Part shown: positions 3,806 through 36,948 of the stretch, one piece after another | How the letters are laid out: every line of letters begins with the position of its first letter | Position numbering within the stretch: the first letter of the stretch is position 1 | Source of the DNA: an uncultured Candidatus Saccharibacteria bacterium | GTDB taxonomy: Bacteria > Patescibacteriota > CALEFQ01 > G965231055 | Direction: 5' to 3' | Length of the DNA: 46,333 nucleotides | NCBI GenBank assembly: GCA_965231055.1 | Contig: OZ246411.1 | Coordinates: forward strand, 1-46,333 | The notes under the pieces: model-generated | Database searches by the model: none | Seen by the model: only the letters and a program-made list of their open reading frames with translations | Told to the model about the DNA's origin: nothing | Made by a program: the position numbers and the translations under genes

Positions 3806-4267
3806 GTGTCAATCATAGCCACAAACAAAACAGCGAGAAGAGATTATTTTCTGCAAGAAAGATTTGAAGCAGGAATTGTTTTGAGTGGACAAGAAGTAAA
3901 ATCAGCCAAAAAAGGAAATGCCAATCTAAAAGGAAGTTATGTAGTAATAAGAATAAGCAAACATGGTCGCCCAGAAGCCAACATAATAAACTTGCATATT
4001 TCTCCTTATGACAAAGCGGGAGAATTGAAAAAATATGATCCCACCAGAACCAGAAGGTTGCTACTCAAAAAAAGTGAGATGCAAGCACTGCTCGGAAAAA
4101 AATCAGCTCAAGGTTTGACAATTGTTCCAACGCAAATATATACTAAGAGGTCTTTGATAAAAGTTGAAGTAGCGACAGCTCGAGGAAAGAAAAAAACTGA
4201 TAAACGCGAAGATATAAAACGCAGAGAATCAAAACGCAACATTGCCAGATCATTGAAAAGGCATTAG
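3806..4267 (+). CDS. smpB: SsrA-binding protein SmpB
   Basis: A 153-aa ORF with a GTG start. The N-terminus (IATNKTARRDYFLQERFEAGIVLSGQEVKS..KGSYV) and the basic C-terminal tail are typical of SmpB. It lies directly upstream of the tmRNA gene. Confidence 0.93.
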   Translation: MSIIATNKTARRDYFLQERFEAGIVLSGQEVKSAKKGNANLKGSYVVIRISKHGRPEANIINLHISPYDKAGELKKYDPTRTRRLLLKKSEMQALLGKKSAQGLTIVPTQIYTKRSLIKVEVATARGKKKTDKREDIKRRESKRNIARSLKRH

Positions 4268-4302
4268 GTTGTAGGTGCTAGGTGTTAGGTTTTAGGTATT
4301 AG
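4265..4302 (+). repeat. TAGGTnn heptad array (5.4 copies) starting with the smpB stop codon
   Basis: Sequence: TAGGTtg TAGGTgc TAGGTgt TAGGTtt TAGGTat TAG. The period is exactly 7, so TAG falls in all three frames in turn. Confidence 0.75.
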
Positions 4303-4340
4303 ACGACGGTAAATCAAGAATTATCCTTGCCATTCATGAG

Positions 4341-4378
4341 CCTAGAACCTAAAACCTGAAAGCTAAAACCTAAAACCT
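4341..4378 (+). repeat. Inverted copy of the TAGGTnn heptad array (ACCTAaa type), ending 5 nt before ssrA
   Basis: Sequence: CCTAgaACCTAaaACCTgaaagCTAaaACCTAaaACCT, whose reverse complement is ..TAGGTtt TAGGTtt TAG.. It can pair with 4265-4302, including an 11-bp perfect run (AGGTTTTAGGT with ACCTAAAACCT). Confidence 0.7.
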
Positions 4379-4383
4379 CGCGT

Positions 4384-4777
4384 GGGGATGACAGGCATCG
4401 ATAGTTGTGGAGCGATTGGTATTCGTCATTAAGAGCTATAAGTCACTCTTGTAAAAAACTGACTTATAATCATAAGTGCAAAATCACTTGTAAGCAAAGT
4501 CAAGGCTGCTTTTAGCATGCCGGTCTTTGCACCTGTTGTTGCCTAAAAACCAACAACCATCGCCCCTGCTTGGCTAGAAGCGGGATCGGCGGTGTCATTA
4601 CCTAGCCTCTATCTCGAGCATTTCTTCCGGCTCTTGATGAAACTTTTAGGAAGATTGAAATTTGCATGTTTAGTTCCCTTTTAGTGCAAGTTTTGAAAAA
4701 ACAAAGGGTTCTAGATGACGTAAAAGTACCACATCAAACCCTTCTAGACGGGGGTTCAATTCCCCCCATCTCCACCA
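4384..4777 (+). ncRNA. ssrA: tmRNA (SsrA), one-piece, with CCA encoded
   Basis: The 5' GGGGATG pairs with the 3' CATCTCC-ACCA acceptor stem, including the G3:U wobble. The T-arm is GGGGG-TTCAATT-CCCCC. The candidate tag ORF runs from GCA at 4478 to TAA at 4544-4546 and encodes AKSLVSKVKAAFSMPVFAPVVA. The stop codon sits in the loop of the hairpin GTTGTTG-cctaaaaac-CAACAAC. The gene is adjacent to smpB. Confidence 0.9.
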
Positions 4778-9829: not shown

Positions 9830-10585
9830 CTATTTCTCCAAACCTTTTGAAAAAATTGATGTGGCGATAGATAAAGTTACAACAGCAAATACAGCAAGAA
9901 TCATAATATCATAACCCACGCCAAACTCAGATACATTTACAAGTACGCCTCTCAATGCATCAACTCCATATGTAAGAGGATTTATATGAGCAAAAAATTG
10001 CAGAAAGGATGGAAGTCCATTTATAGGGAAAAATTCTCCCGATAGAAATATAAGCGGAATAAGTATAATAGTCATTAGCTGATTGTAGCTTCTTGCATTC
10101 TGTAGCGAAGAAGCAAGTATTATTCCAAGTCCGGCAAAGCCAAAAACGATCATAAACATGATTCCGAGTGCTTTTACTATTCCTAGCAATCCGGTATCTG
10201 ATTTGATATACACCATCATGATAGCCACAGCCACGGCAAGTGTAAAAATCTGAGTGGTGATCTCTGAAAGAATTTTTCCTATCATTATAGAATATCTAGA
10301 TATAGGAACCACCATGAGTTCTTTTACAAATCCTTTTTTATCTCTTATTAGAGAAAAACCTACGAACATAGCTGCACTTATAGAAAGCACCGCTATGGCT
10401 CCTGTACCAAAATACTCCAAATATCCTACTTCAAGACCTGGAATCTTTACAAAAGAACCAAGCCCCATGCCTATAATAAAAACTCCAAGCAGTGGTACCA
10501 CTATACTCGTCACAAAAAACGCTTTGTCTGCCCAAAACTTTTTCATCTCTCTAAGCCAGATTATGTATATTTCGTATGCGTTCAT
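9830..10585 (-). CDS. ABC-2 type transporter permease
   Basis: A 251-aa ORF with six predicted TM helices. It abuts the upstream ATPase gene (stop and start are adjacent) and has the typical ABC-2 architecture. Confidence 0.8.
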   Translation of the reverse strand: MNAYEIYIIWLREMKKFWADKAFFVTSIVVPLLGVFIIGMGLGSFVKIPGLEVGYLEYFGTGAIAVLSISAAMFVGFSLIRDKKGFVKELMVVPISRYSIMIGKILSEITTQIFTLAVAVAIMMVYIKSDTGLLGIVKALGIMFMIVFGFAGLGIILASSLQNARSYNQLMTIILIPLIFLSGEFFPINGLPSFLQFFAHINPLTYGVDALRGVLVNVSEFGVGYDIMILAVFAVVTLSIATSIFSKGLEK

Positions 10586-11527
10586 TTATTTTATGTTTTC
10601 TCCCGTGTAATGCAAAAACACATCATCAAGAGTAGGTTTTCTAAGATTGAATGAAAATATTTTTGCTTTGTACTTTTTTACAAACTCAATTATTTTAACA
10701 GCATTACTCTCTCCATTTGCAAGAGTTATCTCAACGTGTTGAATATCCTTAACTACTATTTTCTTAACGAATTTTAGTTTTCTAAATTTATCACTCAAAA
10801 TACAATCATGGTTACTAAGTCTCATCTCTATCAAATCACCGCCGAGCGATGCTTTGAGATTTTCAGGAGTATCTAGCGCTACTATTTTTCCTTTGTTCAT
10901 AATAGCAACTCGGTTGCACAGAAAATCTGCTTCCTCCAAATAATGAGTGGTTAAAACTATAGTTATACTTTCTGTTTCAATGAGTTTTTTTATGTGCTCC
11001 CAAATTTTTCTTCTGCTTTTAGGATCAAGCCCCGTAGTAGGCTCATCCAAAAACAAAACTTTTGGACCATGCACTAAACCTCGCGCTATTTCTAATCGCC
11101 TTTTCATCCCACCAGAAAAAGTATGCGCGAGATCTTTTTCTCTGCCATCAAGCCCAACTAGTTTAAAAAGCTTCTTTATATCTTTTTTTATTTTCTGCTT
11201 TGGGACTCTGTAAAATCTAGCATGCAATGCTAAATTGTCATAAGCCGAAAGATCCTCATCCAAAATAGTTTCTTGAAAAACCAATCCTATATTTTTTCTC
11301 ACTTCTTTTGAATTTTTCACAGTATCAAATCCGGCTATTTTTATGCTGCCTGAAGTCGGCTTGAGAAGTGTGGTCATCATTTGTATTGTGGTAGTTTTGC
11401 CCGCTCCATTTGGACCAATAAGTCCAAAAACTTCTCCGGCTGCTATATTAAAAGATGCTGAATCCACCGCCTTGGATTTGCTTTTTCGAAACAGCTTTTC
11501 CAGTTTTTGAACTTCTACGGTATTCAA
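10586..11527 (-). CDS. ABC transporter ATP-binding protein (ABC-2/DrrA-like)
   Basis: Walker A GPNGAGKTT, signature FSGGMKRRL and Walker B VLFLDEPTTGLD, plus a C-terminal accessory domain. Confidence 0.92.
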   Translation of the reverse strand: MNTVEVQKLEKLFRKSKSKAVDSASFNIAAGEVFGLIGPNGAGKTTTIQMMTTLLKPTSGSIKIAGFDTVKNSKEVRKNIGLVFQETILDEDLSAYDNLALHARFYRVPKQKIKKDIKKLFKLVGLDGREKDLAHTFSGGMKRRLEIARGLVHGPKVLFLDEPTTGLDPKSRRKIWEHIKKLIETESITIVLTTHYLEEADFLCNRVAIMNKGKIVALDTPENLKASLGGDLIEMRLSNHDCILSDKFRKLKFVKKIVVKDIQHVEITLANGESNAVKIIEFVKKYKAKIFSFNLRKPTLDDVFLHYTGENIK

Positions 11528-11576: not shown

Positions 11577-11798
11577 TTATTTTGAGATAGCTTCGTTGAG
11601 TTTTTTGAGAGTTGCTTCAAGTTCTTTTTCTCTCCCATGTGAACTAAGTGCCATTTCAATAGTCTCAAAAAATCTACCACCACACGCCATACAAGAAGAA
11701 CCTATAAAATCTTGAAGTATTTCGGGGGCTTCTTTGCTAGACTCCAAAGCCTCTGCAATTATAGTATCTTTTGTGATTTTATTTTTTGTTGTATTCAT
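11577..11798 (-). CDS. DUF1858 protein (hybrid-cluster-protein-associated redox disulfide domain)
   Basis: A 73-aa ORF. The pattern ITKDTIIAEAL...PEILQDFIGSSCMACGG...TIEMALSSHG....L..L matches the DUF1858 pattern known from memory. Confidence 0.6.
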   Translation of the reverse strand: MNTTKNKITKDTIIAEALESSKEAPEILQDFIGSSCMACGGRFFETIEMALSSHGREKELEATLKKLNEAISK

Positions 11799-11799
11799 G

Positions 11800-12189
11800 T
11801 TATTTCTTTCGTTTAATCAAATCATAAAGGGTTGTCCCCTCAAAAAGTTTTTCTATGTTCAATCTAGCTTTTTCAAAAACAGTATTCGTAATTTCATCAC
11901 TACCTTCTCCCGCGATAGATTTTTTGAGCTTCAATCTTCCCTCAAGCGCATTTATTATTTGTTTCAAGTTTATATTTTTCGCGGGTCTCGCTAGCTGAAA
12001 ACCACCGCCCATACCCCTTCTTGATTCCAAAATTCCATCTCTTTTAAGTCTTTGAAAGATTTTGTTTAGAAAGCTCTGGGGAATATTTTCTTGTTCCGAA
12101 ATATTTTTGACCAAAACATTGCTACCAGGTTTTCTACTGGCCAAATTTACAAGTCCTCTAATTCCGTAAGATGTTTTTTTGGTAAACAT
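11800..12189 (-). CDS. Rrf2-family transcriptional regulator (no Cys, so no Fe-S cluster ligands)
   Basis: A 129-aa ORF. The wHTH region reads TSYGIRGLVNLA...VKNISEQENIPQSFLNKIFQRLKRDGILESRRGMGGGFQLARP. The protein contains no cysteine. Confidence 0.85.
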   Translation of the reverse strand: MFTKKTSYGIRGLVNLASRKPGSNVLVKNISEQENIPQSFLNKIFQRLKRDGILESRRGMGGGFQLARPAKNINLKQIINALEGRLKLKKSIAGEGSDEITNTVFEKARLNIEKLFEGTTLYDLIKRKK

Positions 12190-12220: not shown

Positions 12221-13030
12221 CTATCTTACCATTTTATCCCCCTGAGTCAACAAATCTTTCCTATGCTTAAACCCAATAATTAGCCATGTACAAACTGTTA
12301 TGGTAATAATCCCAATAATCTGAGCATAAGTAAGCCCCTTGAAGCTTTCTGTCGAAAAATACCTTGGATCAGCCAGTGGGATATCAGTAGCCCTAAAAAA
12401 GTCTATAGCAAGTCTCGAGAAACCTTCCAAAATCAAAAACCCCAAGAAAACAAAGCCATCAAACCACTTGTGTTTTCTCACCCAAAACCACACAAAAAGA
12501 AAGATAGCGAGATTAAAAATCACTAGATACAAAGAGGTTTCATGCCTAAGCTCACCATAATAACTTGCAGCCCAAGGCACCGTAGTAATTTCTCCAATAT
12601 GGTCCCTTATCAAGTGGCAACCAATTCTCCCTATAGTCAATCCGATAGCAAGTCCAGGAGCAAAAATATCCGCAGCTTTCCAAAAGTTTAGCTTTTTAAT
12701 TTTGACGTAAATCAAAACTCCAACCAGAGCCATTATAAATCCCCCATAATACGCCATCCCGCCATTCCATATCTTGAATATTTCCAAAAATCCTCTGCCC
12801 CTAAATTCATCCAAATACATCAATACATAAGCAAGTCTCGCCCCCACAAAAGTTCCAGCAAAAGCTATTATTATAATATCGAGTAGCTTATCTCTATTAA
12901 ACCCCTTATTTTTTCCTTCAAAAAGGATGAGCAAAATTGCCACCACCAAACCTACGGCAACCATAGTGCCCCAGGCCTGTAATGTCACGGGACCTATATT
13001 GAACTCTGTTATTTGAGGATACGGTAACAT
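12221..13030 (-). CDS. lgt: Prolipoprotein diacylglyceryl transferase
   Basis: A 269-aa polytopic ORF with Lgt motifs: ..GPVTLQAWG.., GARLAYV, GGMAYYGG, IGRIGCHL..DHIG..T..PWA. Confidence 0.88.
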   Translation of the reverse strand: MLPYPQITEFNIGPVTLQAWGTMVAVGLVVAILLILFEGKNKGFNRDKLLDIIIIAFAGTFVGARLAYVLMYLDEFRGRGFLEIFKIWNGGMAYYGGFIMALVGVLIYVKIKKLNFWKAADIFAPGLAIGLTIGRIGCHLIRDHIGEITTVPWAASYYGELRHETSLYLVIFNLAIFLFVWFWVRKHKWFDGFVFLGFLILEGFSRLAIDFFRATDIPLADPRYFSTESFKGLTYAQIIGIITITVCTWLIIGFKHRKDLLTQGDKMVR

Positions 13031-13056
13031 ATTTTTTTAAGCTAGCTATTAAAAAA

Positions 13057-14286
13057 TTAATTAACTCTAATAAATTTCGCAATCATATCTTCTTGCTGAA
13101 CAGTAGAACTATTCTTAATAAGCTCAATGTAGTTTTTCAGATTCTTCTCTATACCCAAAAGATTCAATTCAAATGGTGTCAAAATTTTACATTCAGTTAT
13201 TTTACCAGAATCATCTACTTCATAGTAGTGAAAAAGTGTACCGCTTGGAGATTCTATGACTCCCAAACCCTTTCCCGATTTTGGTTTGAATTTTGTATTT
13301 CCTTTTTCTAGATCAACCGCTAAAAGTTTTGGAACCACTTTTTTAATTTCCTCAAGTAGATGAACTATTTCTATCACTTGCGCCACTGGGGCATGAAATG
13401 GATTTGAATCAGGAAGTTTTATGGGAGACTCAGACAAGAGCTTCGTGGCTCTAGAATTGAGGTTATTTGAAGAAACATTAATTCTAGCAAGAGCGCCAAC
13501 ACAAATATTATTTTCTCCATAAATAAATCTGTTAGCTAAATCGTAATCTGTATTTGTTATTTTTATTTGATTATAAAATTTGGCATTTGAATTTATTTGC
13601 ATTCCATCAGAAAAAATCTCTCCGTCGCAAATAGGATAGCTTTTCTTTTTACTAAGCGCGAAATAATTTGACTCACTTTCAAATTCTGGAAACTTAAAAC
13701 CAAAAACAAATTTAACCATCTCTAGGGCTATCGGCATTATTTCATCTGACTCTAGCATAATTTTTTTAAGCTCACTCCTCCTTGGAAACGAGGTAAATCC
13801 ACCAACCTTGGGAGCAATAGGATGGATACTTCTACCTCCAATCAGAATGCATATTTTTCTAGCATACTCCTCTAGTTTCAATATCTTTTTGGAAAATTCA
13901 TAATATTTTTCTGAAAACTTCAATGCATCAACTGTTTTTGAAAAATCTGGAATTGAAGAAAAATGCAAATACATGACATGACTTTCTAAAATATGTCCGA
14001 TCATGAGTAGCTTACGCAAAAGTAAGGTCTGCTTTGAAGACCTTACCTGCATCGCGTTTTCTACCGCCTTGATAGCTGCTATCGCGTGAGATATAGAATA
14101 CCCGTGAAACAATCTAGGAGCTACTTCATGAACTTCATCATAGCTACTCCCAATAATCACATCTTCGGAATTCAAAGAATAATCATTTACAATGACTTTA
14201 GCAGTTTGTTGATTACCTTTCATGAGCTCAGATTCAAAACCGATATCACGACCAATCCTACTTATTTTATCTATTTTTATTTTCAT
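13057..14286 (-). CDS. [NiFe]-hydrogenase large-subunit homologue (group 3b alpha-like) lacking the Ni-Fe cysteine ligands
   Basis: A 409-aa ORF with conserved large-subunit blocks (GHILESHVMYLHF, GGRSIHPIAPKVGGF). The RxCGxCxxxH motif reads RLFHGYSISH. The protein ends at ..KFIRVN, before the position where DPCxxCxxH would start. It has a 4-nt ATGA overlap with the small-subunit gene. Confidence 0.8.
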   Translation of the reverse strand: MKIKIDKISRIGRDIGFESELMKGNQQTAKVIVNDYSLNSEDVIIGSSYDEVHEVAPRLFHGYSISHAIAAIKAVENAMQVRSSKQTLLLRKLLMIGHILESHVMYLHFSSIPDFSKTVDALKFSEKYYEFSKKILKLEEYARKICILIGGRSIHPIAPKVGGFTSFPRRSELKKIMLESDEIMPIALEMVKFVFGFKFPEFESESNYFALSKKKSYPICDGEIFSDGMQINSNAKFYNQIKITNTDYDLANRFIYGENNICVGALARINVSSNNLNSRATKLLSESPIKLPDSNPFHAPVAQVIEIVHLLEEIKKVVPKLLAVDLEKGNTKFKPKSGKGLGVIESPSGTLFHYYEVDDSGKITECKILTPFELNLLGIEKNLKNYIELIKNSSTVQQEDMIAKFIRVN

Positions 14287-14990
14287 TTAATTTTGCTATT
14301 TCCAAATCTTTTATATAACTCCTTTAGCCTATCTTCTGAAATTGTTTTACTCAAAGCTTTTTCTAAATTATTAGTACTTGCATCTTTCAAAAACCCCCTG
14401 CATCCATCACAAGCATATTTATTTTTTATACAAATAGCGCTACATCCACCTCTTGTCACCGGCCCTAGACATGGCTCGCCTTTTTGCAATAGACACTCAT
14501 ATTCATTTTTCTGGCATTCATAACACACGGGATTTTTGGTTGTTTTGAGTAGAACTCCTTCTCTTGCCGAATTGAGAACTCGTAGTGTTTCTTCAAAATC
14601 AGGAGGACATCCAGGAATAAATACATCCACCTTCACACACTCGCTGATTGATTTTATCTTCACTTCGTTATTGTTTTTTAGCCTTGAGACTCCTTTATAC
14701 ATAGCACACAATCCCAATGAAATGAGTATTTTTGAGTTTTCACGATAAAACTTTAATTTTTCAAGATCGCTTTCGTTCACAACTATGCCTTCAATAACAC
14801 AAACATCATAAAGAAATTTACCTTTGGAAGATTTTTGCCTCACTTCGTCTTTCAATAAATCAAAATTTTTTAAATCAACTGCATTTAAAAAATCAAAAAA
14901 CTTTTCTCCGCCTTGAAGTATGGTAAATAAGCACCCTCCGCACGAAGATAGGCTCACGAATGCAAATTTTGGTTTTATTTGGTTTTTCAT
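14283..14990 (-). CDS. [NiFe]-hydrogenase small subunit (group 3b delta-like, NuoB fold)
   Basis: A 235-aa ORF. Proximal-cluster ligands are present (SSCGGC, GLCAMYKG, PGCPP). The C-terminus is Cys-rich (CYEC..C..C..GGCSAIC..YACDGC). Confidence 0.8.
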   Translation of the reverse strand: MKNQIKPKFAFVSLSSCGGCLFTILQGGEKFFDFLNAVDLKNFDLLKDEVRQKSSKGKFLYDVCVIEGIVVNESDLEKLKFYRENSKILISLGLCAMYKGVSRLKNNNEVKIKSISECVKVDVFIPGCPPDFEETLRVLNSAREGVLLKTTKNPVCYECQKNEYECLLQKGEPCLGPVTRGGCSAICIKNKYACDGCRGFLKDASTNNLEKALSKTISEDRLKELYKRFGNSKIK

Positions 14991-15007
14991 TTCTATTTAA
15001 TCGTGTC

Positions 15008-15526
15008 TTATTTTATTTTGCCCACATCCTTTTCAATAATTCTTAGCGCGGAATTGTGAAGCAATGGATTGATATCGCTCATGCAAAGATCCTTTAGCAC
15101 CGTCACTTCATATCCTCGCTGAAACGCATCTCTCGCGGAAGTAAGCACACAACTCTCGGTGGCAATACCACAAAAAATAAGCTTAGTTATTCCAAGTCTC
15201 TTCAGATATTGCTCAAAGCCCTTGGCTGCAAAAACCGTATACACACTTCTGGTAAAAATCTTGTGATCGTTTTCAAATCCAGCAAGCTCTGTCAAAAGCA
15301 AGGTCTCCCTGTCAGTGCACAGCTCTCTAAACCCAAGTAGCTTGTAGATAGGACTTGATTTTGAATTTCTAAACCTAGCGAACGCAAAATCACCTTTGTA
15401 TTTTTTCAAAAATTTTACAAGTTTTTTTCCGTAAGCTCTCCCTTTCGTCTTATTTCCTTCGAAGAAAAATTCCTGAGGATCTACCACAACCAAAAGAGTG
15501 TTTGATAATTTTTTTGATTTTGTCAT
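15008..15526 (-). CDS. Isochorismatase-family (cysteine hydrolase) protein
   Basis: A 172-aa ORF with LLVVVDPQEFF (Asp) and a catalytic Cys context, FCGIATESCVLTSARDA. Confidence 0.75.
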   Translation of the reverse strand: MTKSKKLSNTLLVVVDPQEFFFEGNKTKGRAYGKKLVKFLKKYKGDFAFARFRNSKSSPIYKLLGFRELCTDRETLLLTELAGFENDHKIFTRSVYTVFAAKGFEQYLKRLGITKLIFCGIATESCVLTSARDAFQRGYEVTVLKDLCMSDINPLLHNSALRIIEKDVGKIK

Positions 15527-15543
15527 ATAAAAATATTAGATGA

Positions 15544-16368
15544 CTAAATATACTCTTTTACGTCGCTATATTTAAATACCGGTCCATCGTGACATACGTA
15601 TTTTTCCCCTATCGCGCAATGCTGACATATACCTATACCACAATTCATTCTGCGTTCAAGAGAAACATATATATTTGAAGAATCAATTCCAAGCTCAATG
15701 AGTTTTTCTGCAGAAGCTTTCATCATTCCTGATGGCCCCACGATAATAGCTATTGAGTCTGACGAAACTTTTTCTTTGCATATTAGGTTTGTTACCAAGC
15801 CAGTCCTATACTTCCAGTCTATTCCTTCTACACTATCTACGGTAATACAAAGTTCAATTCTTTTTTTCCACTCATTAAGCTCATCTTGAAAAAATATTTG
15901 AGAAGGAGTTTTGGCACCGTAGCACAAGGTAATTTTTTTATAACTATCACTCGAATCCATGGCAGATCTAATAAGAGATCGCACGGGAAAGATTCCCGTA
16001 CCCCCAGCTACAAGTACAGAATTTTTATTTTTCATTAATCCAATCGGAAAATACCCTTTTCCAAGAGGTCCCCTTATTCCCACTTCATCTCCCACCTTCA
16101 TATCGAAAAGTTTGGAGGTAACTTTACCTGTTTTCCTCACTCCCACTGCAATTTTTTTCTTATCAAAAACGCTAGAAGCATAAGCCAAAGGAATTTCTCC
16201 AGCAAAAGGCACCCAGAGCTCAAAAAACTGTCCTGGAAAAAACTTGTGCGATCCGTCTGGGGTGTGTGGATTTATGCCCTGAAGTTCCAGTTCAAAAAAT
16301 TTGGTTTCAGGATCCAGATCCTTGATCTTTAAAATTTTTGCTTTTTGTGGGATAAACGGACTTAGCAT
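15544..16368 (-). CDS. FAD/NAD(P)-binding oxidoreductase with a C-terminal 2Fe-2S site (group 3b gamma / PyrK-like)
   Basis: A 274-aa ORF with a nucleotide-binding VLVAGGTGIFP motif and the C-terminal CGIGICQHCAIG...C motif. Confidence 0.82.
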   Translation of the reverse strand: MLSPFIPQKAKILKIKDLDPETKFFELELQGINPHTPDGSHKFFPGQFFELWVPFAGEIPLAYASSVFDKKKIAVGVRKTGKVTSKLFDMKVGDEVGIRGPLGKGYFPIGLMKNKNSVLVAGGTGIFPVRSLIRSAMDSSDSYKKITLCYGAKTPSQIFFQDELNEWKKRIELCITVDSVEGIDWKYRTGLVTNLICKEKVSSDSIAIIVGPSGMMKASAEKLIELGIDSSNIYVSLERRMNCGIGICQHCAIGEKYVCHDGPVFKYSDVKEYI

Positions 16369-16373
16369 AAAAA

Positions 16374-17345
16374 TTATTTTGAATCTAAAAAGTTTTTGGA
16401 TTTCGAAAGCACTTCATTGATCTTTATCCCCACCGGACAAGTTTTTGAGCATCTTCCACATCCTACGCAACTAGGAGCACCATATTTTTCGAAATCCCTA
16501 ACAAATTTGTGAAAATACCAAAAATAAATTTTTTGTTTCGTGGTTTTAAGCACGCGTTCTCCACCAGTCATTTCACTAAATTCATCATAGAAACACGACG
16601 ACCATTCTCTTTGTCTCTTGCCTTCTCCATTTTTGACCCCGCAAACATCACACATTTCATAGCAATAGCACAAAGGACAAACCAACGAGCATTTTCCACA
16701 CGCAAGACAAATATCCCCCAACTCTTTCCAAAAATCAGCATCCCTTGAGAGCAAAATACTCTGTTTTATCTTTTCTTTTTCTGGATCCTTTTTATATCCC
16801 TCGTAAATAACATTGTTGTAATCACCGATATTCGCTTCATCGCAAATCTTTTGTCCCTCCTCTGAGCCAGTAATAAAATGATATTCTTTTTTCTGCATCT
16901 CTATGAAAATATCAAAAATCAAATGAGCTAACATGCTATTTTCATAAGTTTCTTGAAAAATATTGTACTCAACTTGCTCAGGTACCAAGCTCGTACCCAC
17001 CAAAACAATTCTTTTTATATTTTCCTGCACATATGGATCTTTTTCAAAAACCTGGAGCAAAGAAGTTATAGCTTTCATATCAAGCACATTCACACCAAAA
17101 AGCATGATTTTTCTATCCTTATTCTTGGGAAGAACTATTTTTGAATCTTTATATCTAAACAAATCTTCCTTGGAGGGCAATAGAAACTTTTTCCACGAAT
17201 ACTCGGGCATCTCTCCTCCAAAATAAATTTGATCTATTTTTAAAATTTTGGAAATCAAAATACGGTTCCCTGATTTTGTGGGAGCATAAAAAGCAAACTC
17301 CTTGATCCATTTTTCTATTATACTGTTTGTTTTTGTTTGATTCAC
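16374..17345 (-). CDS. 4Fe-4S dicluster subunit (group 3b beta / AsrA-like)
   Basis: A 323-aa ORF with CLACGKCSLVCPLCYC and CVGCGRCSKTCP motifs. Its length and position match HydB/AsrA-type subunits. Confidence 0.78.
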   Translation of the reverse strand: MNQTKTNSIIEKWIKEFAFYAPTKSGNRILISKILKIDQIYFGGEMPEYSWKKFLLPSKEDLFRYKDSKIVLPKNKDRKIMLFGVNVLDMKAITSLLQVFEKDPYVQENIKRIVLVGTSLVPEQVEYNIFQETYENSMLAHLIFDIFIEMQKKEYHFITGSEEGQKICDEANIGDYNNVIYEGYKKDPEKEKIKQSILLSRDADFWKELGDICLACGKCSLVCPLCYCYEMCDVCGVKNGEGKRQREWSSCFYDEFSEMTGGERVLKTTKQKIYFWYFHKFVRDFEKYGAPSCVGCGRCSKTCPVGIKINEVLSKSKNFLDSK

Positions 17346-17377: not shown

Positions 17378-17458
17378 CACCTAGTCACTAATGCATCCAA
17401 TCCCCCCCTATTCCCTCTAACCGAAACCTATAACCTGATCTCTGGCCGCTAGTACCTA
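17378..17458 (-). repeat. Degenerate TAG/AGGT heptad-like array starting at the ferredoxin stop codon
   Basis: The minus strand reads TAGGTac TAGcggc cagagatc AGGTta TAGGTtt cggt TAGaggg aa TAGggggggattggatgcat TAGtgac TAGGTga. Several spacings are exactly 7. Confidence 0.5.
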
Positions 17459-17653
17459 CTCTCCCCAACTAATAGCCTTCACAGGACATTCAGAAATAGC
17501 TTGGTCAATTTTTTCTTTTTGCGATGAATAATCTGACATTTCTTTTACTTTTGATTTACCACCATCACCACTCATATCAAATACTTCTGGGCACACGCCA
17601 GCGCAATTTCCGCAAGCTATGCATGCATTTTGATCTACTTTTGGTTTTGCCAT
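17456..17653 (-). CDS. Small 4Fe-4S ferredoxin
   Basis: A 65-aa ORF with CIACGNCAGVCP ... ECP, the single-cluster ferredoxin pattern. Confidence 0.85.
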   Translation of the reverse strand: MAKPKVDQNACIACGNCAGVCPEVFDMSGDGGKSKVKEMSDYSSQKEKIDQAISECPVKAISWGE

Positions 17654-18802: not shown

Positions 18803-21661
18803 ATGCAAAAATACGAACCCAAAATAGTTGAGGAAAAGTGGCAAAAAATCTGGGAAGAACAAAAGGCTTTTAAAGCCAACGACAAAGACAAAAAACCCAA
18901 ATACTATGCCTTGGTTGAATTTCCTTATCCCTCAGGGGAAGGACTTCACTGTGGTCACCCAAGATCCTATACAGCGCTTGATGTAGTAGCAAGAAAAAGA
19001 CGCATGCAAGGCTACAATGTTTTGTATCCCATGGGATTTGACGCGTTTGGCCTTCCTGCGGAAAACTACGCTATAAAAACCAAATCCAACCCCAAGGATG
19101 TAGTAAAAAAGAATATAGAAAATTTTACCCGCCAGATGAAATCTATAGGATTTTCTTTTGATTGGGATAGAGTCGTAAATACTACTGAACCAGAATATTA
19201 TAAATGGACTCAGTGGATCTTTTTGAAACTTTTTGAAAAAGGACTCGCTTACCAAAAACAAATGCCAATCAATTGGTGCCCAAAATGCAAAATAGGTTTA
19301 GCCAACGAAGAAGCAATTGATGGTAAATGCGAAAGATGCGGAACAGAAGTAGAAAAAAAGGACATGAAACAATGGATGCTTGCTATCACCAAGTACGCCG
19401 ATAGGCTTATTGATGATCTAGATGATTTGGATTATCTAGAAAAAATAAAACTGCAACAAAAAAACTGGATCGGACGAAGTGAGGGCACTATCGCCAAATT
19501 CAAAATCAAAACACAGCAATCAGCCGAAAGCCAAAAGCCAAAAGCCAAAAGCTCATTAATTGAAATTTTTACCACAAGAATAGACACGATTTTTGGAGTT
19601 ACCTATATCGTACTAGCTCCCGAACATGAACTAGTAAGACAAATCACGACACCTGAACACCAAAAAGAAGTAGATAAATATATCAAGCAGACGAATTCCA
19701 AAACAGATATCCAAAGGAAGGATCTTGAAAAAGAAAAAACCGGAGTATTTACCGGCAGCTATGCAATAAACCCGGTTAACAACAAAGAGGTGCCAATTTG
19801 GATCGCTGACTATGTCGTAGCATCATACGGATCCGGAGCAGTAATGGCAGTCCCAGCGCATGATGAACGCGATTATGCATTCGCTAAAAAATATAATTTA
19901 CCAATAGAATACGTTATAGAACCAGTCACTGGAAAACCAAGAGAAAAAGAAGAATACAGAAAAAGCGTTGTAGTTGTCGTAGAAAATCCAAAGAATGGCA
20001 AGGTGCTTACTTTTAATTGGGGCAAAGAGCTTGGAGGATATTTAATCTTGGGAGGAGGAATGGAAACAAATGAAGACCCAATAGAAGCTGCTAAAAGAGA
20101 AATACTTGAGGAAACTGGATATAAAAATGTAGAATTCGTAGCGAAATCAGAAACTATTCACCATCACTACAGAGCGCACTCAAAAAATGTGAATAGATAT
20201 ATTGATGCGGTAGGCCTACACTTCAGACTGAAAGATGAATCCAAAGAAAATACAAAGCTCGAGGATAGCGAAAAAGGAAAATTCAAACTTGAATGGAAGG
20301 AAAAAAATGAAGTAGCTAATCTCATAGAAGACGAACTACATCATTATGTTTTTGCTAGATTTATTCTTGGAAACGCATTTACTGGGGATGGCATTTTGAT
20401 AGGTTCCGAAGATTTTTCAGGAATGGATTCCGAAAAAGCAAGAGAAGAAATTACAAAATGGTTAAATAAAAAGAATTTAGGAGATAAAAAAGTAGAATAC
20501 AGCCTGAGAGACTGGGTATTTTCAAGACAACACTATTGGGGAGAGCCAATACCAATAATACATTGTAAGAAATGTGGAATAGTGCCAGTGCCAGAAAAAG
20601 AACTTCCAATAGAACTTCCTTTTGTAGAGAATTACGAGCCAACAAACACCGGAGAATCCCCTCTTGCCAAAATCACAGACTGGGTAAATACTACTTGCCC
20701 GAAATGTGGCGCAAAGGCAAAAAGAGAAACAGACACAATGCCAAACTGGGCTGGATCAAGCTGGTATTTCATAAGATACATAGATCCCAAAAACGACAAA
20801 GAAATAGCCGACAAAAAGAAACTAAAACATTGGCTCCCTATTGACTGGTACAATGGCGGAATGGAACACACCACGCTACACCTTCTCTACTCTAGATTTT
20901 GGTACAAATTTCTCTATGATATAGGGGTTGTTCCCACTAAGGAACCTTATCAGAAGCGAACCTCTCATGGGATGATACTCGCAGAAGATGGACAAAAAAT
21001 GTCCAAATCCAGGGGTAATGTTATAAATCCTGACGACATAATTGAGAAGTTTGGAGCAGACACGCTCAGGATGTATGAAATGTTTATGGGACCCTTTTCC
21101 GAAGCGGTGGCTTGGAATACTGATAGTATTAAAGGGGTTAGAAAATTCTTGGATAGAGTTTGGAATAATTTTTCCGAATTACCAGGCAAAGAATCTGATA
21201 AAGAAATAGAGGTAAAACTACACCAAACAATAAAGAAAATCACAGAAGACATAGAGGCAATGCGATTCAATACTTGCATAAGCGCGTTAATGGAATTGCT
21301 AAATTTCATAGAAAACAAACCCACAACCAAAGAACAAGCCGAAATCTTCACCAAACTTCTATATCCATTTGCGCCACACATATCAGAAGAGCTATGGGAA
21401 AAACTTGGGCACACGCAAACAATCACCAATGAAGCTTGGCCAATTTTTGATGAATCAAAAATCAAAACCTCAACGGTCAAAATTGGAGTTCAGATCATGG
21501 GTAAAGTAAGGGGAACAATAGAGCTTTCTCAAGAAGCAACAGAAAAAGAGGCAGTAAAACTTGCAAAAGAAAATCCCAACATACAAAAACACCTCAGAGA
21601 TAAAAAAATTATCAAAACTATTTACGTTCCAGGAAAAATTCTAAACTTTGTGGCCAAATAA
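18803..21661 (+). CDS. leuS: Leucine--tRNA ligase with an in-frame Nudix-domain insertion
   Basis: A 952-aa ORF with HIGH as HCGHPRS and KMSKS as QKMSKSRGN. The CP1 editing motifs TTRIDTIFG and GSGAVMAVPAHDERD are present. A C-terminal domain is present. An extra segment at aa 378-525 carries the Nudix box GGMETNEDPIEAAKREILEETGY. Confidence 0.95.
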   Translation: MQKYEPKIVEEKWQKIWEEQKAFKANDKDKKPKYYALVEFPYPSGEGLHCGHPRSYTALDVVARKRRMQGYNVLYPMGFDAFGLPAENYAIKTKSNPKDVVKKNIENFTRQMKSIGFSFDWDRVVNTTEPEYYKWTQWIFLKLFEKGLAYQKQMPINWCPKCKIGLANEEAIDGKCERCGTEVEKKDMKQWMLAITKYADRLIDDLDDLDYLEKIKLQQKNWIGRSEGTIAKFKIKTQQSAESQKPKAKSSLIEIFTTRIDTIFGVTYIVLAPEHELVRQITTPEHQKEVDKYIKQTNSKTDIQRKDLEKEKTGVFTGSYAINPVNNKEVPIWIADYVVASYGSGAVMAVPAHDERDYAFAKKYNLPIEYVIEPVTGKPREKEEYRKSVVVVVENPKNGKVLTFNWGKELGGYLILGGGMETNEDPIEAAKREILEETGYKNVEFVAKSETIHHHYRAHSKNVNRYIDAVGLHFRLKDESKENTKLEDSEKGKFKLEWKEKNEVANLIEDELHHYVFARFILGNAFTGDGILIGSEDFSGMDSEKAREEITKWLNKKNLGDKKVEYSLRDWVFSRQHYWGEPIPIIHCKKCGIVPVPEKELPIELPFVENYEPTNTGESPLAKITDWVNTTCPKCGAKAKRETDTMPNWAGSSWYFIRYIDPKNDKEIADKKKLKHWLPIDWYNGGMEHTTLHLLYSRFWYKFLYDIGVVPTKEPYQKRTSHGMILAEDGQKMSKSRGNVINPDDIIEKFGADTLRMYEMFMGPFSEAVAWNTDSIKGVRKFLDRVWNNFSELPGKESDKEIEVKLHQTIKKITEDIEAMRFNTCISALMELLNFIENKPTTKEQAEIFTKLLYPFAPHISEELWEKLGHTQTITNEAWPIFDESKIKTSTVKIGVQIMGKVRGTIELSQEATEKEAVKLAKENPNIQKHLRDKKIIKTIYVPGKILNFVAK

Positions 21662-32394: not shown

Positions 32395-33216
32395 TTAGAC
32401 TGGTCTAAGAGTGCCTGCCCAGACTTGCCATGCCAAAAGAGATTTGGCAACCAAGCTCAAGACAATATATGTATATTCTCCGTAAAGATAGTTGGACCAC
32501 TTTCCTGTTTTCTTGTACTGCAAAACCATATTAATGGCAAAGATATTGAATGTAACGAGTATTGTACCGAAAATCCAGTACACAAATGTAGGCACTTCTC
32601 CAGCTTCACTACCCGATCCCATAAGATAAATCAAAATTGCAATCCACGGCACAACCCCAGCAATCACTCCAAACCAATAAGGAAGCCATCTGACTTTTGT
32701 CTGACCTTGATTGTAAAGCTCCATCATCCAACCAAACAAGATCATCATGGCATTGAGCGCAAACATAAGCATAAGACTAGCTCCATCATACATTCCAAAA
32801 AGCATCGCAATAACAACTATCATAATCGATGAGCTAAAGCTGTATTCTATCCACCTAGCAGGATTGATTTTTTTCTTCAGATTATTCACATACCAGTTAT
32901 TGATCCCTGGAAGAGCGACTATGAGATGGGCTAGCGCAGAGAGAAACAAGAACGAAGCAACGAGTGGCCCCATCTTTATATCGAATGCAACTTCCTGAAA
33001 TGGCATTACTTTCTGAATAGCTGGATCAAACTTCAAGAAAGAGGTCGTTACAGGGAGAGTAAAATCATTGCTTACTACAAGCATCAAAAAACCCTGAATG
33101 GCGTGAAATATAGCCATTACCACATTGAAAATCCGGAGTTTTTTAAAGCTGATATCCGGCACAGCTTTTTTTTCATTTTTCATTTTTTTGTTTATATTAA
33201 CTTCTATGTTTAGCAT
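32395..33216 (-). CDS. Heliorhodopsin
   Basis: Collinear similarity to heliorhodopsin 48C12, recalled from memory: FHAIQ, LSALAHLIV, RWIEYSFSSSIMIVVIA, ILFGWMMELYN, PYWFGVIAGVVPWIAILIY, KWSNYLYGEYTYIVLSLVAKSLLAWQVWAGTLRP. The Schiff-base Lys (K258, codon 32443-32445) and the counterion Glu (E124) are present. The true start is probably Met12 at 33183, because the first ATG lies inside the -10 box. Confidence 0.9.
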   Translation of the reverse strand: MLNIEVNINKKMKNEKKAVPDISFKKLRIFNVVMAIFHAIQGFLMLVVSNDFTLPVTTSFLKFDPAIQKVMPFQEVAFDIKMGPLVASFLFLSALAHLIVALPGINNWYVNNLKKKINPARWIEYSFSSSIMIVVIAMLFGMYDGASLMLMFALNAMMILFGWMMELYNQGQTKVRWLPYWFGVIAGVVPWIAILIYLMGSGSEAGEVPTFVYWIFGTILVTFNIFAINMVLQYKKTGKWSNYLYGEYTYIVLSLVAKSLLAWQVWAGTLRPV

Positions 33217-36354: not shown

Positions 36355-36948
36355 TTATTCTAGCTCACCTACTATGGGATATTTTGAAATTTGGCTTTTA
36401 ACATGATAGCTGTAAAAATCGCTAGTAAGCTCCTTGCCAGCATAATGAGAAAAATGCGATCCATTTCTGAAAACGCTAGAGAGATCATAAACATTGCCAT
36501 CAACTGCAACATAAGCCGGATTTCCATCTTGTCCGTCGTATTTGGAGAGCTCTGAAAGAGTGAAAGTTTTTTTAGTTGAGGTTGATTCACTATTTGAAGA
36601 AGTTTGCACCCGTGAAGATTCTGAAACAACAGTTTCATTCTTTTTTTCATAATTTTCAAGGTACACAAAAAAGCATCCAAACAAAATAAAAAATATTATA
36701 AGCAAGCTTTTTGACAAAACATTCCACATCTTCCATCTCTTGAGTGCAAGATGAATTGCAAATGAAGCATGAACGATAAAAGCAATAGCAATAACATAAT
36801 TCAAAAAACCTGTGTGCAGTTTGGTTGCAAAAACAGGATCTATAAAACCCTTGGTCATTCCATATCCAGTTATAAAGTAGATAAACATTCCGATAAAAAG
36901 TATCCATGCAGCTACCCTATCCAATCTAATAAGATATTTTATAAGCAT
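36355..36948 (-). CDS. Membrane protein with a C-terminal cytochrome b5-like heme/steroid-binding domain
   Basis: A 197-aa ORF with about 4 N-terminal TM helices. The C-terminus (FTLSELSKYDGQDGNPAYVAVDGNVYDLSS.....H..AGKELT) is typical of the Cyt-b5/PGRMC-like fold. Confidence 0.6.
   Translation of the reverse strand: MLIKYLIRLDRVAAWILFIGMFIYFITGYGMTKGFIDPVFATKLHTGFLNYVIAIAFIVHASFAIHLALKRWKMWNVLSKSLLIIFFILFGCFFVYLENYEKKNETVVSESSRVQTSSNSESTSTKKTFTLSELSKYDGQDGNPAYVAVDGNVYDLSSVFRNGSHFSHYAGKELTSDFYSYHVKSQISKYPIVGELE

Follow-up and report, generated by a model that had tools for sequence, protein, structure and literature searches.

The closest described counterparts of the system considered here are soluble hydrogenase I (SHI) of Pyrococcus furiosus (PDB 9nez, 9nf0, 9e1j, 9e15) and the HyhL enzyme of Thermococcus (PDB 5yxy), group 3b [NiFe]-hydrogenases built from beta, gamma, delta (small), and alpha (large) subunits. 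Sulfur-reductase activity has been attributed to the Pyrococcus sulfhydrogenase, and the homology of the sulfhydrogenase beta–gamma module with AsrAB is already known. NuoD/Nqo4 and Ehr are the accepted precedents for functional large subunits without metal-binding cysteines. A 46,333-nucleotide stretch of DNA from an uncultured Candidatus Saccharibacteria bacterium (positions 1 to 46,333 of contig OZ246411.1, assembly GCA_965231055.1; this whole stretch is called the window below) matches SHI in its four subunit types and in their gene order, but its large-subunit homolog, alpha, lacks the residues that would hold a Ni-Fe center. Within the Candidate Phyla Radiation (CPR), the searchable literature notes cysteine loss only for group 4 Ehr proteins (Jaffe et al., 2020; PMC7304191), and papers on CPR group 3b enzymes (PMC7304191; PMC10811913) treat these as hydrogenases and do not mention nickel-free forms. 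No description of nickel-free group 3b large subunits, or of the two clades of such proteins introduced below as D1 and D2, was found in the searchable literature, where absence is no proof.

Family assignments support the relationship with the sulfhydrogenases while indicating considerable divergence. The best or near-best NCBIfam matches of the four redox subunits are the ShyA/B/C/D and HydA/B/D/G models; likewise, SHI and SHII models and chains are the best or near-best matches of alpha, delta, gamma, and beta, and the best PDB match of alpha is P. furiosus SHI alpha (E = 3e-34). All four fall well short of the NCBIfam equivalog cut-offs (191 bits for ShyA, where 700 are required), and the locus further differs from SHI in carrying an extra isochorismatase-family gene and no nearby hyp genes. 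The single best NCBIfam match of beta is AsrA (124 bits; cut-off 323), its ShyB match also falling below cut-off, and that of gamma is AsrB (213 bits; cut-off 289). Here, these AsrA- and AsrB-like subunits are linked to delta and alpha homologs instead of AsrC; no AsrC-like siroheme subunit occurs among the window open reading frames (ORFs) scanned.

Compared with SHI, alpha is missing the four Ni-Fe cysteines, the Glu and His of the L0 motif, the Arg of L4, and the C-terminal DPCxxCxxH motif (L5). In L1 (residues 58-67; 14086..14115, minus strand), RLFHGYSISH replaces RICGICPVVH: the DNA reads AGA TTG TTT CAC GGG TAT TCT ATA TCT CAC, the first six codons lying at 14115-14098. The flanking Arg and His are retained, while all eight residues between them, among them both Cys and the Gly, are substituted. 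L0 reads RIGRD where R/K-x-E-G-H is expected (residues 10-14; 14245..14259, minus strand), L4 reads ESPSG in place of EAPRG (residues 345-349; 13240..13254, minus strand), so that its arginine is gone, and further invariant residues are replaced at G13, R38, G61, H106, T372, and Y409. The protein ends ...KFIRVN; its last codon, Asn409, is followed by a TAA stop at 13059-13057 and a 26-nt spacer to the ATG of lgt at 13030 (13031..13062, minus strand). An alignment of 32 sequences places Phe and Tyr in the two L1 Cys columns, RIGRD on RxEGH, and ESPSG on EAPRG; alpha ends one residue short of the Asp of L5, and no intact Cys pair occupies the active-site columns. The preliminary description of this DNA had already reported the L1 string and its six codons, the exchange of both cysteines for Phe and Tyr, RIGRD in place of RxEGH, and a stop 26 nt before lgt where DPCxxCxxH should begin; the DNA and the alignment agree with it on each point.

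The L0 Glu and His, which belong to the proton relay, and the L4 Arg have catalytic roles in other [NiFe]-hydrogenases. Because these residues, all four Ni-Fe cysteines, and L5 are lost together, a Ni-Fe center could not be ligated, as the preliminary description had concluded; it follows directly from the sequence that alpha cannot bind or mature a Ni-Fe(CN)2CO center. The hydrogenase large-subunit fold is predicted to be kept: the AlphaFold2 model, calculated with a homolog alignment, has a predicted local distance difference test (pLDDT) score of 90.9 and a template modeling (TM) score of 0.96 to P. furiosus SHI alpha (9nf0_H).

The alpha gene is not visibly broken. The delta stop and alpha start overlap as ATGA at 14286-14283, and residues 1-407 align in one frame in tblastn searches with intact relatives. 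Neither a DPCxxCxxH nor an RxCGxCxxxH peptide is encoded in any of the six frames of the window, and a second large-subunit gene is absent from it. Given the single-frame alignment and the lack of an alternative-frame motif, the losses do not result from a frameshift or a split gene, and no frameshift was detected that would restore a DPCxxC C-terminus. Selenocysteine insertion, readthrough, and a split gene were considered and ruled out, as the stop is TAA and no motif lies downstream or in another frame.

The combination of losses appears to be rare. A search of a word index of 5.8 billion protein clusters returned 347 homologs, of which the best 120 were inspected for motifs; among these 120, alpha is the only full-length protein without the L1, L4, and L5 motifs together. 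Its nearest relative (P0002, 49% identity) is intact, with RICGICPIVH, EAPRG, and DPCISCATH, and names attached to the homologs include Portnoybacteria, Komeilibacteria, and Moranbacteria. Among the CPR group 3b enzymes (hyd1/hyd2; Berkelbacteria/Moranbacteria), alpha is nearest to P0002-P0005 and then to Portnoybacteria-type sequences; the CPR sequences checked keep RICG(I/V)CP(V/I)(V/I)H and DPC(I/L)(S/T)CATH, which alpha does not. No close relative of alpha itself was found in the 5.8 billion protein clusters, the GTDB representative genomes, or the JGI (Joint Genome Institute) metagenome contigs. Two contigs carry the same protein, a weak argument against an assembly artifact; the longer measures 843,892 bp, which, like the homolog names, is in keeping with a small genome of CPR/Patescibacteria type.

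Alpha is not, however, the only large-subunit homolog of this kind without ligands. An exhaustive HMMER scan of 1.84 billion representatives recovered about 15 more that lack one or more of them, all unseen in the word-index search. In a neighbor-joining tree of 251 sequences, most fall into two deep clades, D1 (P0159, P0164, P0193, P0206, P0254, and, added later, P0292) and D2 (P0161, P0182, P0202, P0217, P0228), whose members share less than 50% identity; the pair P0171/P0177, the isolated P0251, and the window protein (P0001) lie outside both. The window protein groups first with P0002 and P0003, both intact, and next with P0004 and P0005, and is not monophyletic with D1 or D2, to whose members it is 24-32% identical (vs. 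49% to P0002). Since it nests with intact relatives, its ligand loss is independent of theirs. Nickel-free members share several features: the second L1 Cys is lost, EAPRG is replaced by ESPxG, L0 is lost, and L5 is degenerate or truncated (P0202 of D2, for example, ends ...AYGTSFN). The ESPxG replacement recurs in at least four independent nickel-free lineages, while the replacements at the ligand positions differ between the window protein and D1/D2. D1, unlike the window protein, keeps three of the four Cys (the first of L1 and usually both of L5) and has gained an invariant Cys directly before the L4 Glu (C-E-x-x-x-G); D1 is remodeled instead of Cys-less, and its four Cys could hold a different metal center or cluster.

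The three nickel-free members whose loci were looked up, drawn from both clades, all lie in beta–gamma–delta–alpha operons, and the delta subunits of these operons keep their Fe-S cysteines. Two D1 loci (L085 and L088) show Patescibacteria-type synteny, the beta ORF of L088 being cut by the contig end. L085 is syntenic with an intact CPR locus, L089 (PfkB-FBA-PGK, then beta–gamma–delta–alpha, ABC-ABC2, and GAPDH-TIM-CofD-UvrC), but is without the HypC of L089. The D2 operon, identical in two samples (L086/L087; Logan SRR28370467 and SRR28370465), adjoins genes for eIF-1A and TFIIE alpha, neighbors that mark an archaeal contig; its large subunit (P0228) is without all four ligand Cys (RTYGNSSVSY, ESPEG, SYNMPFIGSTH). 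Nickel-free 3b-type complexes can thus persist over long evolutionary time. The window protein conforms to the D1/D2 pattern of lost active-site and kept scaffold residues within a beta–gamma–delta–alpha operon, and the long-lived D1 and D2 operons make a maintained non-hydrogenase role for its complex credible.

The substitution record of alpha points to relaxed constraint. In Tajima-type tests, lineage-specific substitutions outnumber those of the sister P0002 by a factor of 2-3.7 in alpha (28/30 outgroups). With ancestral residues defined as positions at which P0002, P0003, and P0004 agree, alpha has changed 33%, 40%, and 53% of those in the high, medium, and low conservation classes, against about 4%, 17%, and 27% in controls. 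By our own rough estimate from the class counts, the excess replacement is about 20-30% and fairly even across classes. When the motif columns are left out, the gradient in alpha persists (22%, 38%, 53%; p = 0.02). The codon-position composition is normal and the same as that of neighboring genes, and the frame has stayed open. In a neutral simulation in which random substitutions, indels not counted, were applied to the alpha and P0002 genes, the frame stayed open with P = 0.004-0.02 at 20% amino acid divergence and P <= 0.0015 at 30%. An open alpha frame after the excess divergence is therefore improbable under neutrality (P about 0.0005-0.02).

In 234 intact homologs, 46 columns are conserved to at least 90%, and alpha has changed 19 of these and kept 27; 15 of the 19 are changed in D1/D2 too, and 24 of the 27 are kept there (Fisher p = 6e-6), a concordance that gives an odds ratio near 24 on a hand recount with the C-terminal rows left out. 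Alpha has lost L0, E35/R38, the L1 interior, H106, R348, T372, and L5; it has kept R58, H67, E76, R91, H103, the GGRxxHP and GGF blocks, Y217, R268, E306, E345, P347, G349, G361, and P371. Read against the nickel-free clades, retention and loss are non-random. We infer from the integrity of the ORF, the residues kept, and these parallel cases that alpha is under reduced but real purifying selection. The preliminary description had called the gene intact and coupled to delta, which the ATGA overlap bears out; that it is not simply a broken gene is now supported by its single frame, the simulation, and the retention pattern, so that constraint at the protein level is added to the earlier evidence.

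The degeneration is specific to alpha. A comparison set was assembled from 80 group 3b loci and four further contigs, and all four subunits could be extracted from 65; differences were counted at columns at least 90% conserved, the controls being scored leave-one-out. Alpha differs at 26 of 66 such columns (39%), far above the control median of 1.5% and also above the highest control value, 16%. Delta (4/31) and gamma (3/40, at positions where differences are common to CPR relatives) lie inside the control range, and beta (9/32) lies above it (control maximum 22%), so that the three subunits are at or near control conservation and have stayed under purifying selection while alpha diverged. The positions lost in beta include three N-domain Cys (window positions 88, 120, and 131), each with at least 90% conservation among the other 3b beta subunits. 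The losses were considered as part of the alpha degeneration and rejected as such, because a CPR relative with an intact alpha (L007) is without the same three Cys; they are a clade trait, shared between the window and CPR group 3b, and from these missing residues the window and L007 complexes probably have one Fe-S cluster fewer than non-CPR enzymes. Gamma has all four of its [2Fe-2S] Cys. In an alignment with P. furiosus SHI delta and relatives, delta retains the four proximal-cluster Cys and the eight Cys of the medial and distal clusters. Its linker between GxCA and PGCPP, with a 19-aa gap, is the shortest among the relatives compared; decay was rejected as the explanation, since intact CPR delta subunits such as that of L089 are similarly short there. 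The cofactor motifs first quoted for beta, gamma, and delta are all present in the ORF translations, and the three subunits keep the residues for FAD/NAD(P), one [2Fe-2S] cluster, and a [4Fe-4S] relay.

No Hyp protein or endopeptidase is encoded in the window, by tblastn and Pfam scans, as had been noted from the sequence at the outset. By tblastn, Hyp genes are likewise absent from the fetched DNA of the nickel-free loci (L085-L088) and occur only in loci with an intact alpha: L002 and L003, which carry HypA, C, D, E, and F, and the syntenic L089, which carries HypC. The best 120 matches to the HypD of L003, all at 50-62% identity with E < 1e-122, include the HypD on the 1,136,458-bp contig of P0005, and among these 120 no cluster comes from a contig of 843,892 bp. 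The window thus differs from the looked-up CPR group 3b loci, which have hyp genes nearby. The missing protease is uninformative: relatives in the clade of alpha end exactly at ...CATH, so that no C-terminal extension, and no protease, is expected.

By descent and architecture, the operon is of the CPR group 3b type. With L1, L5, and second-shell residues absent, the defining catalytic features of a [NiFe]-hydrogenase are missing, and, on these residues, the complex should not be filed as a functional one. The preliminary description compared it with NuoD and Ehr. In all of these, the large-subunit fold is kept after Cys loss and the small subunit keeps a cluster by the former active site. In contrast to NuoD and Ehr, the nearest sequences and structures of the window proteins are all of group 3 (3b, then 3c/3a/3d), with no NuoD chain among the PDB sequence matches, alpha is no closer to NuoD and Ehr than other group 3 enzymes are, and the operon has no membrane or antiporter-like subunits, its electron input being the AsrAB-like beta–gamma pair instead of NuoEFG. 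The analogy is therefore reasonable, and it is strengthened by the independent nickel-free 3b-type operons in CPR bacteria and an archaeon. Nickel-free large subunits derived from hydrogenases were known already; here they are found in the soluble group 3b lineage, apparently recurrently.

The explanation that we favor, with moderate confidence, is that alpha has no catalytic part and serves as the scaffold of a flavin/Fe-S complex that is linked to NAD(P)H and unable to handle H2. The operon would descend from a CPR-type group 3b [NiFe]-hydrogenase whose hydrogen-activating site is gone, with alpha still made and retained to pair structurally with delta, the small subunit that carries Fe-S clusters. 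A beta–gamma–delta–alpha complex would then assemble as in SHI, and electrons from NAD(P)H would enter gamma at its FAD and [2Fe-2S], move on to the [4Fe-4S] clusters of beta, and from there reach three [4Fe-4S] clusters in delta. Such a complex would most likely be a soluble NAD(P)H-linked oxidoreductase with an acceptor other than protons. Candidate acceptors include the 65-aa ferredoxin whose gene lies 110 nt upstream of that for beta; sulfur or polysulfide, by analogy with the beta–gamma module of the Pyrococcus sulfhydrogenase; and a ligand in a remodeled pocket by the proximal cluster, by analogy with NuoD/NuoB.

Several points weigh against this explanation. Since intact relatives make up the alignment that drives the AlphaFold model, it says little about the stability of alpha itself. 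The Cys-less form is known from one genome only. Among highly conserved columns outside the motifs, 22% are changed in alpha against 4% of all such columns in controls, and this clearly relaxed constraint beyond the active site would be expected of a protein that is being lost just as much as of a looser scaffold. Because lgt follows 26 nt downstream without a terminator-like site, stop codons in alpha may be selected against through polarity or translational coupling, which would preserve the frame; polarity toward lgt would not, on the other hand, explain the non-random retention of residues. Finally, the adjacency of the ferredoxin gene is unique to the window locus, and any assignment of an acceptor is inferential.

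A rival possibility is that the operon is the relic of a hydrogenase inactivated only recently, in which H2 metabolism, the hyp genes, and nickel insertion have been lost, alpha is functionless with a frame that is not yet broken, and beta–gamma (with or without delta) is perhaps still used or the whole operon is heading for deletion. We regard this as unlikely, if to be taken seriously. Alpha is a singleton whose nearest homolog, at 49% identity, is fully intact; its replacement is strongly accelerated and fairly even over the conservation classes (33/40/53% vs. 4/17/27%); its C-terminal truncation looks like a deletion or nonsense event; and the window holds no hyp genes. Yet a 409-codon frame would hardly have survived so much neutral change, even with indels disregarded (P about 0.0005-0.02), and the conserved residues that it keeps coincide with those kept in long-lived nickel-free clades (p = 6e-6). 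Nor do beta, gamma, and delta show comparable decay, and both the ATGA coupling and a normal coding composition are preserved. Operon deletion is common in reduced genomes; against a relic, such genomes usually remove dead genes quickly.

A broader explanation is also conceivable, although quite unlikely: soluble sulfhydrogenase-type complexes may have shed the Ni-Fe center repeatedly, on four or five occasions at the least, among CPR bacteria and in an archaeon (probably of the DPANN group), and been kept as an unrecognized class of NAD(P)H-linked Fe-S/flavin reductases, the pocket between alpha and delta serving a new acceptor. Tentative to the same degree is the corollary that they form a soluble counterpart of the transition from hydrogenase to complex I, of which the window would carry the most extreme case, with all four Cys and the C-terminal strand gone.

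As a special case of the favored explanation, alpha may have been neofunctionalized, the former Ni-Fe pocket having become a new substrate site as in NuoD/NuoB. We consider this specific version distinctly unlikely. The L1 interior is wholly replaced, with bulky or polar residues (Phe, His, Tyr) at former ligand positions; the recurrence of ESPxG in at least four nickel-free lineages hints at convergent remodeling, and an invariant Cys has appeared beside the L4 Glu in D1. In NuoD, the Tyr and His that bind quinone are close to where the Ni-Fe site was, and F60, H61, and Y63 of alpha could be viewed as counterparts, although only as a lead. However, no conserved new motif is definable in a singleton lineage, the replacements at ligand positions are unlike those of D1/D2, and the general relaxation of constraint counts against a finely tuned new site. 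Least credible, indeed very improbable, is an artifact in which a frameshift, chimera, selenocysteine, or readthrough codon hides a normal hydrogenase. Nothing was found in its favor, and only the shortness of the C-terminus brings it into consideration: residues 1-407 align in one frame with no L1 or L5 motif in any frame, the stop is TAA and not TGA with lgt beginning 26 nt later, the losses amount to about 20 independent substitutions spread along the gene, and the same protein is recorded on two contigs.

These observations have consequences for genome annotation. Alpha passes PF00374, and its nearest models are those of group 3b; model-based pipelines would therefore count a group 3b hydrogenase here, and the same holds for about 15 other nickel-free or partly degenerate clusters. 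H2 and sulfur metabolism is attributed to CPR and DPANN organisms in large part through group 3b enzymes, so that some such attributions are likely wrong; nickel-free 3b-like proteins could be flagged simply by checking the motifs L1, L4 (ESPxG), and L5. Loss of the Ni-Fe site with the scaffold kept is also how complex I arose from group 4 hydrogenases. The corresponding change in soluble 3b complexes, apparently taken several independent times and with the electron input intact, would offer tractable models of hydrogenase conversion. Five genes for one module are a sizable share to retain in a genome of about 0.85 Mb, which suggests that its redox function is of importance to the organism.

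The operon and its neighbors are listed in Table 1. On the minus strand, from 17345 to 13057, five ORFs are closely packed, encoding beta, gamma, an isochorismatase-family protein, delta, and alpha; all four genes of the alpha–beta–gamma–delta heterotetramer are present with cofactor motifs, and one extra gene stands between gamma and delta. The canonical beta–gamma–delta–alpha order given in the preliminary description is thus right as to the subunits and their sequence, but it omits the inserted gene.

Table 1. The group 3b-type operon and neighboring genes in the window (positions count from its first nucleotide; aa, amino acids).
Feature	Length (aa)	Position	Strand	Family matches and remarks
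4Fe-4S ferredoxin, single cluster	65	17456..17653	-	Pfam Fer4_13, E = 5e-18; 110 nt upstream of beta
beta subunit (HydB/ShyB/AsrA-like)	323	16374..17345	-	PF17179, E = 2e-26; two CxxCxxCxxxCP motifs
gamma subunit (HydG/ShyC/AsrB-like; FAD/NAD(P), 2Fe-2S)	274	15544..16368	-	PF00970, PF00175, PF10418
isochorismatase-family (cysteine hydrolase) ORF	172	15008..15526	-	PF00857, E = 1e-25
delta (small) subunit	235	14283..14990	-	PF01058, E = 5e-22; ShyD/HydD matches
alpha, large-subunit homolog	409	13057..14286	-	PF00374, E = 1e-12; unable to ligate Ni-Fe
lgt (prolipoprotein diacylglyceryl transferase)		12221..13030	-	PF01790, E = 5e-53; directly downstream of alpha, same strand
Rrf2-family regulator (Cys-free) and small DUF1858 protein		11577-12189	-	downstream of lgt and before the ABC transporter genes; same direction as the operon
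DrrA-type ABC ATPase and ABC-2 permease		9830..11527	-	downstream of the operon

No homolog of the inserted gene was found in any of the 84 loci of the comparison set, which include the 65 with a full set of subunits. By eye, the Asp in VVVDPQ and the Cys in ATESCV of its product resemble catalytic residues. In one nickel-free D1 operon (L088), the same slot between gamma and delta is occupied by a short-chain dehydrogenase/reductase (SDR) gene. The ferredoxin gene is a possible source of a redox partner by context; no ferredoxin gene was seen beside the related operons L085, L088, and L089. Downstream of alpha, the pair of DrrA-type ATP-binding cassette (ABC) ATPase and ABC-2 permease genes recurs in these same three CPR loci (at 9742-11427 in L085, 4239-5928 in L088, and 10280-11963 in L089), a feature that the window shares with CPR group 3b. 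Its position beside both intact and nickel-free 3b-type operons suggests conserved linkage, to which no meaning is assigned. DUF1858 is a redox- and Fe-S-repair-associated domain, and the Rrf2-family and DUF1858 proteins are possible regulators. A scan for promoters and terminators gave no signal above shuffled expectation, and no terminator-like site was detected between alpha and lgt.

Several further genes of the window merit brief mention. The genome, small and AT-rich, also has a heliorhodopsin gene (32395-33216, minus strand; PF18761, E = 1e-100), at a distance of 15 kb from the hydrogenase-like operon. The leucyl-tRNA synthetase (18803-21661, plus strand) has a NUDIX hydrolase domain (residues 385-507; PF00293, E = 2e-11) inserted right after its editing domain, an unusual fusion. 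SmpB adjoins the tmRNA gene (3806-4777, plus strand; tag peptide AKSLVSKVKAAFSMPVFAPVVA), which is an ordinary arrangement. A 197-aa protein (36355-36948, minus strand) ends in a C-terminal cytochrome b5-like heme-binding domain (PF00173, E = 8e-9) which, to our knowledge, is uncommon in genomes of this type.

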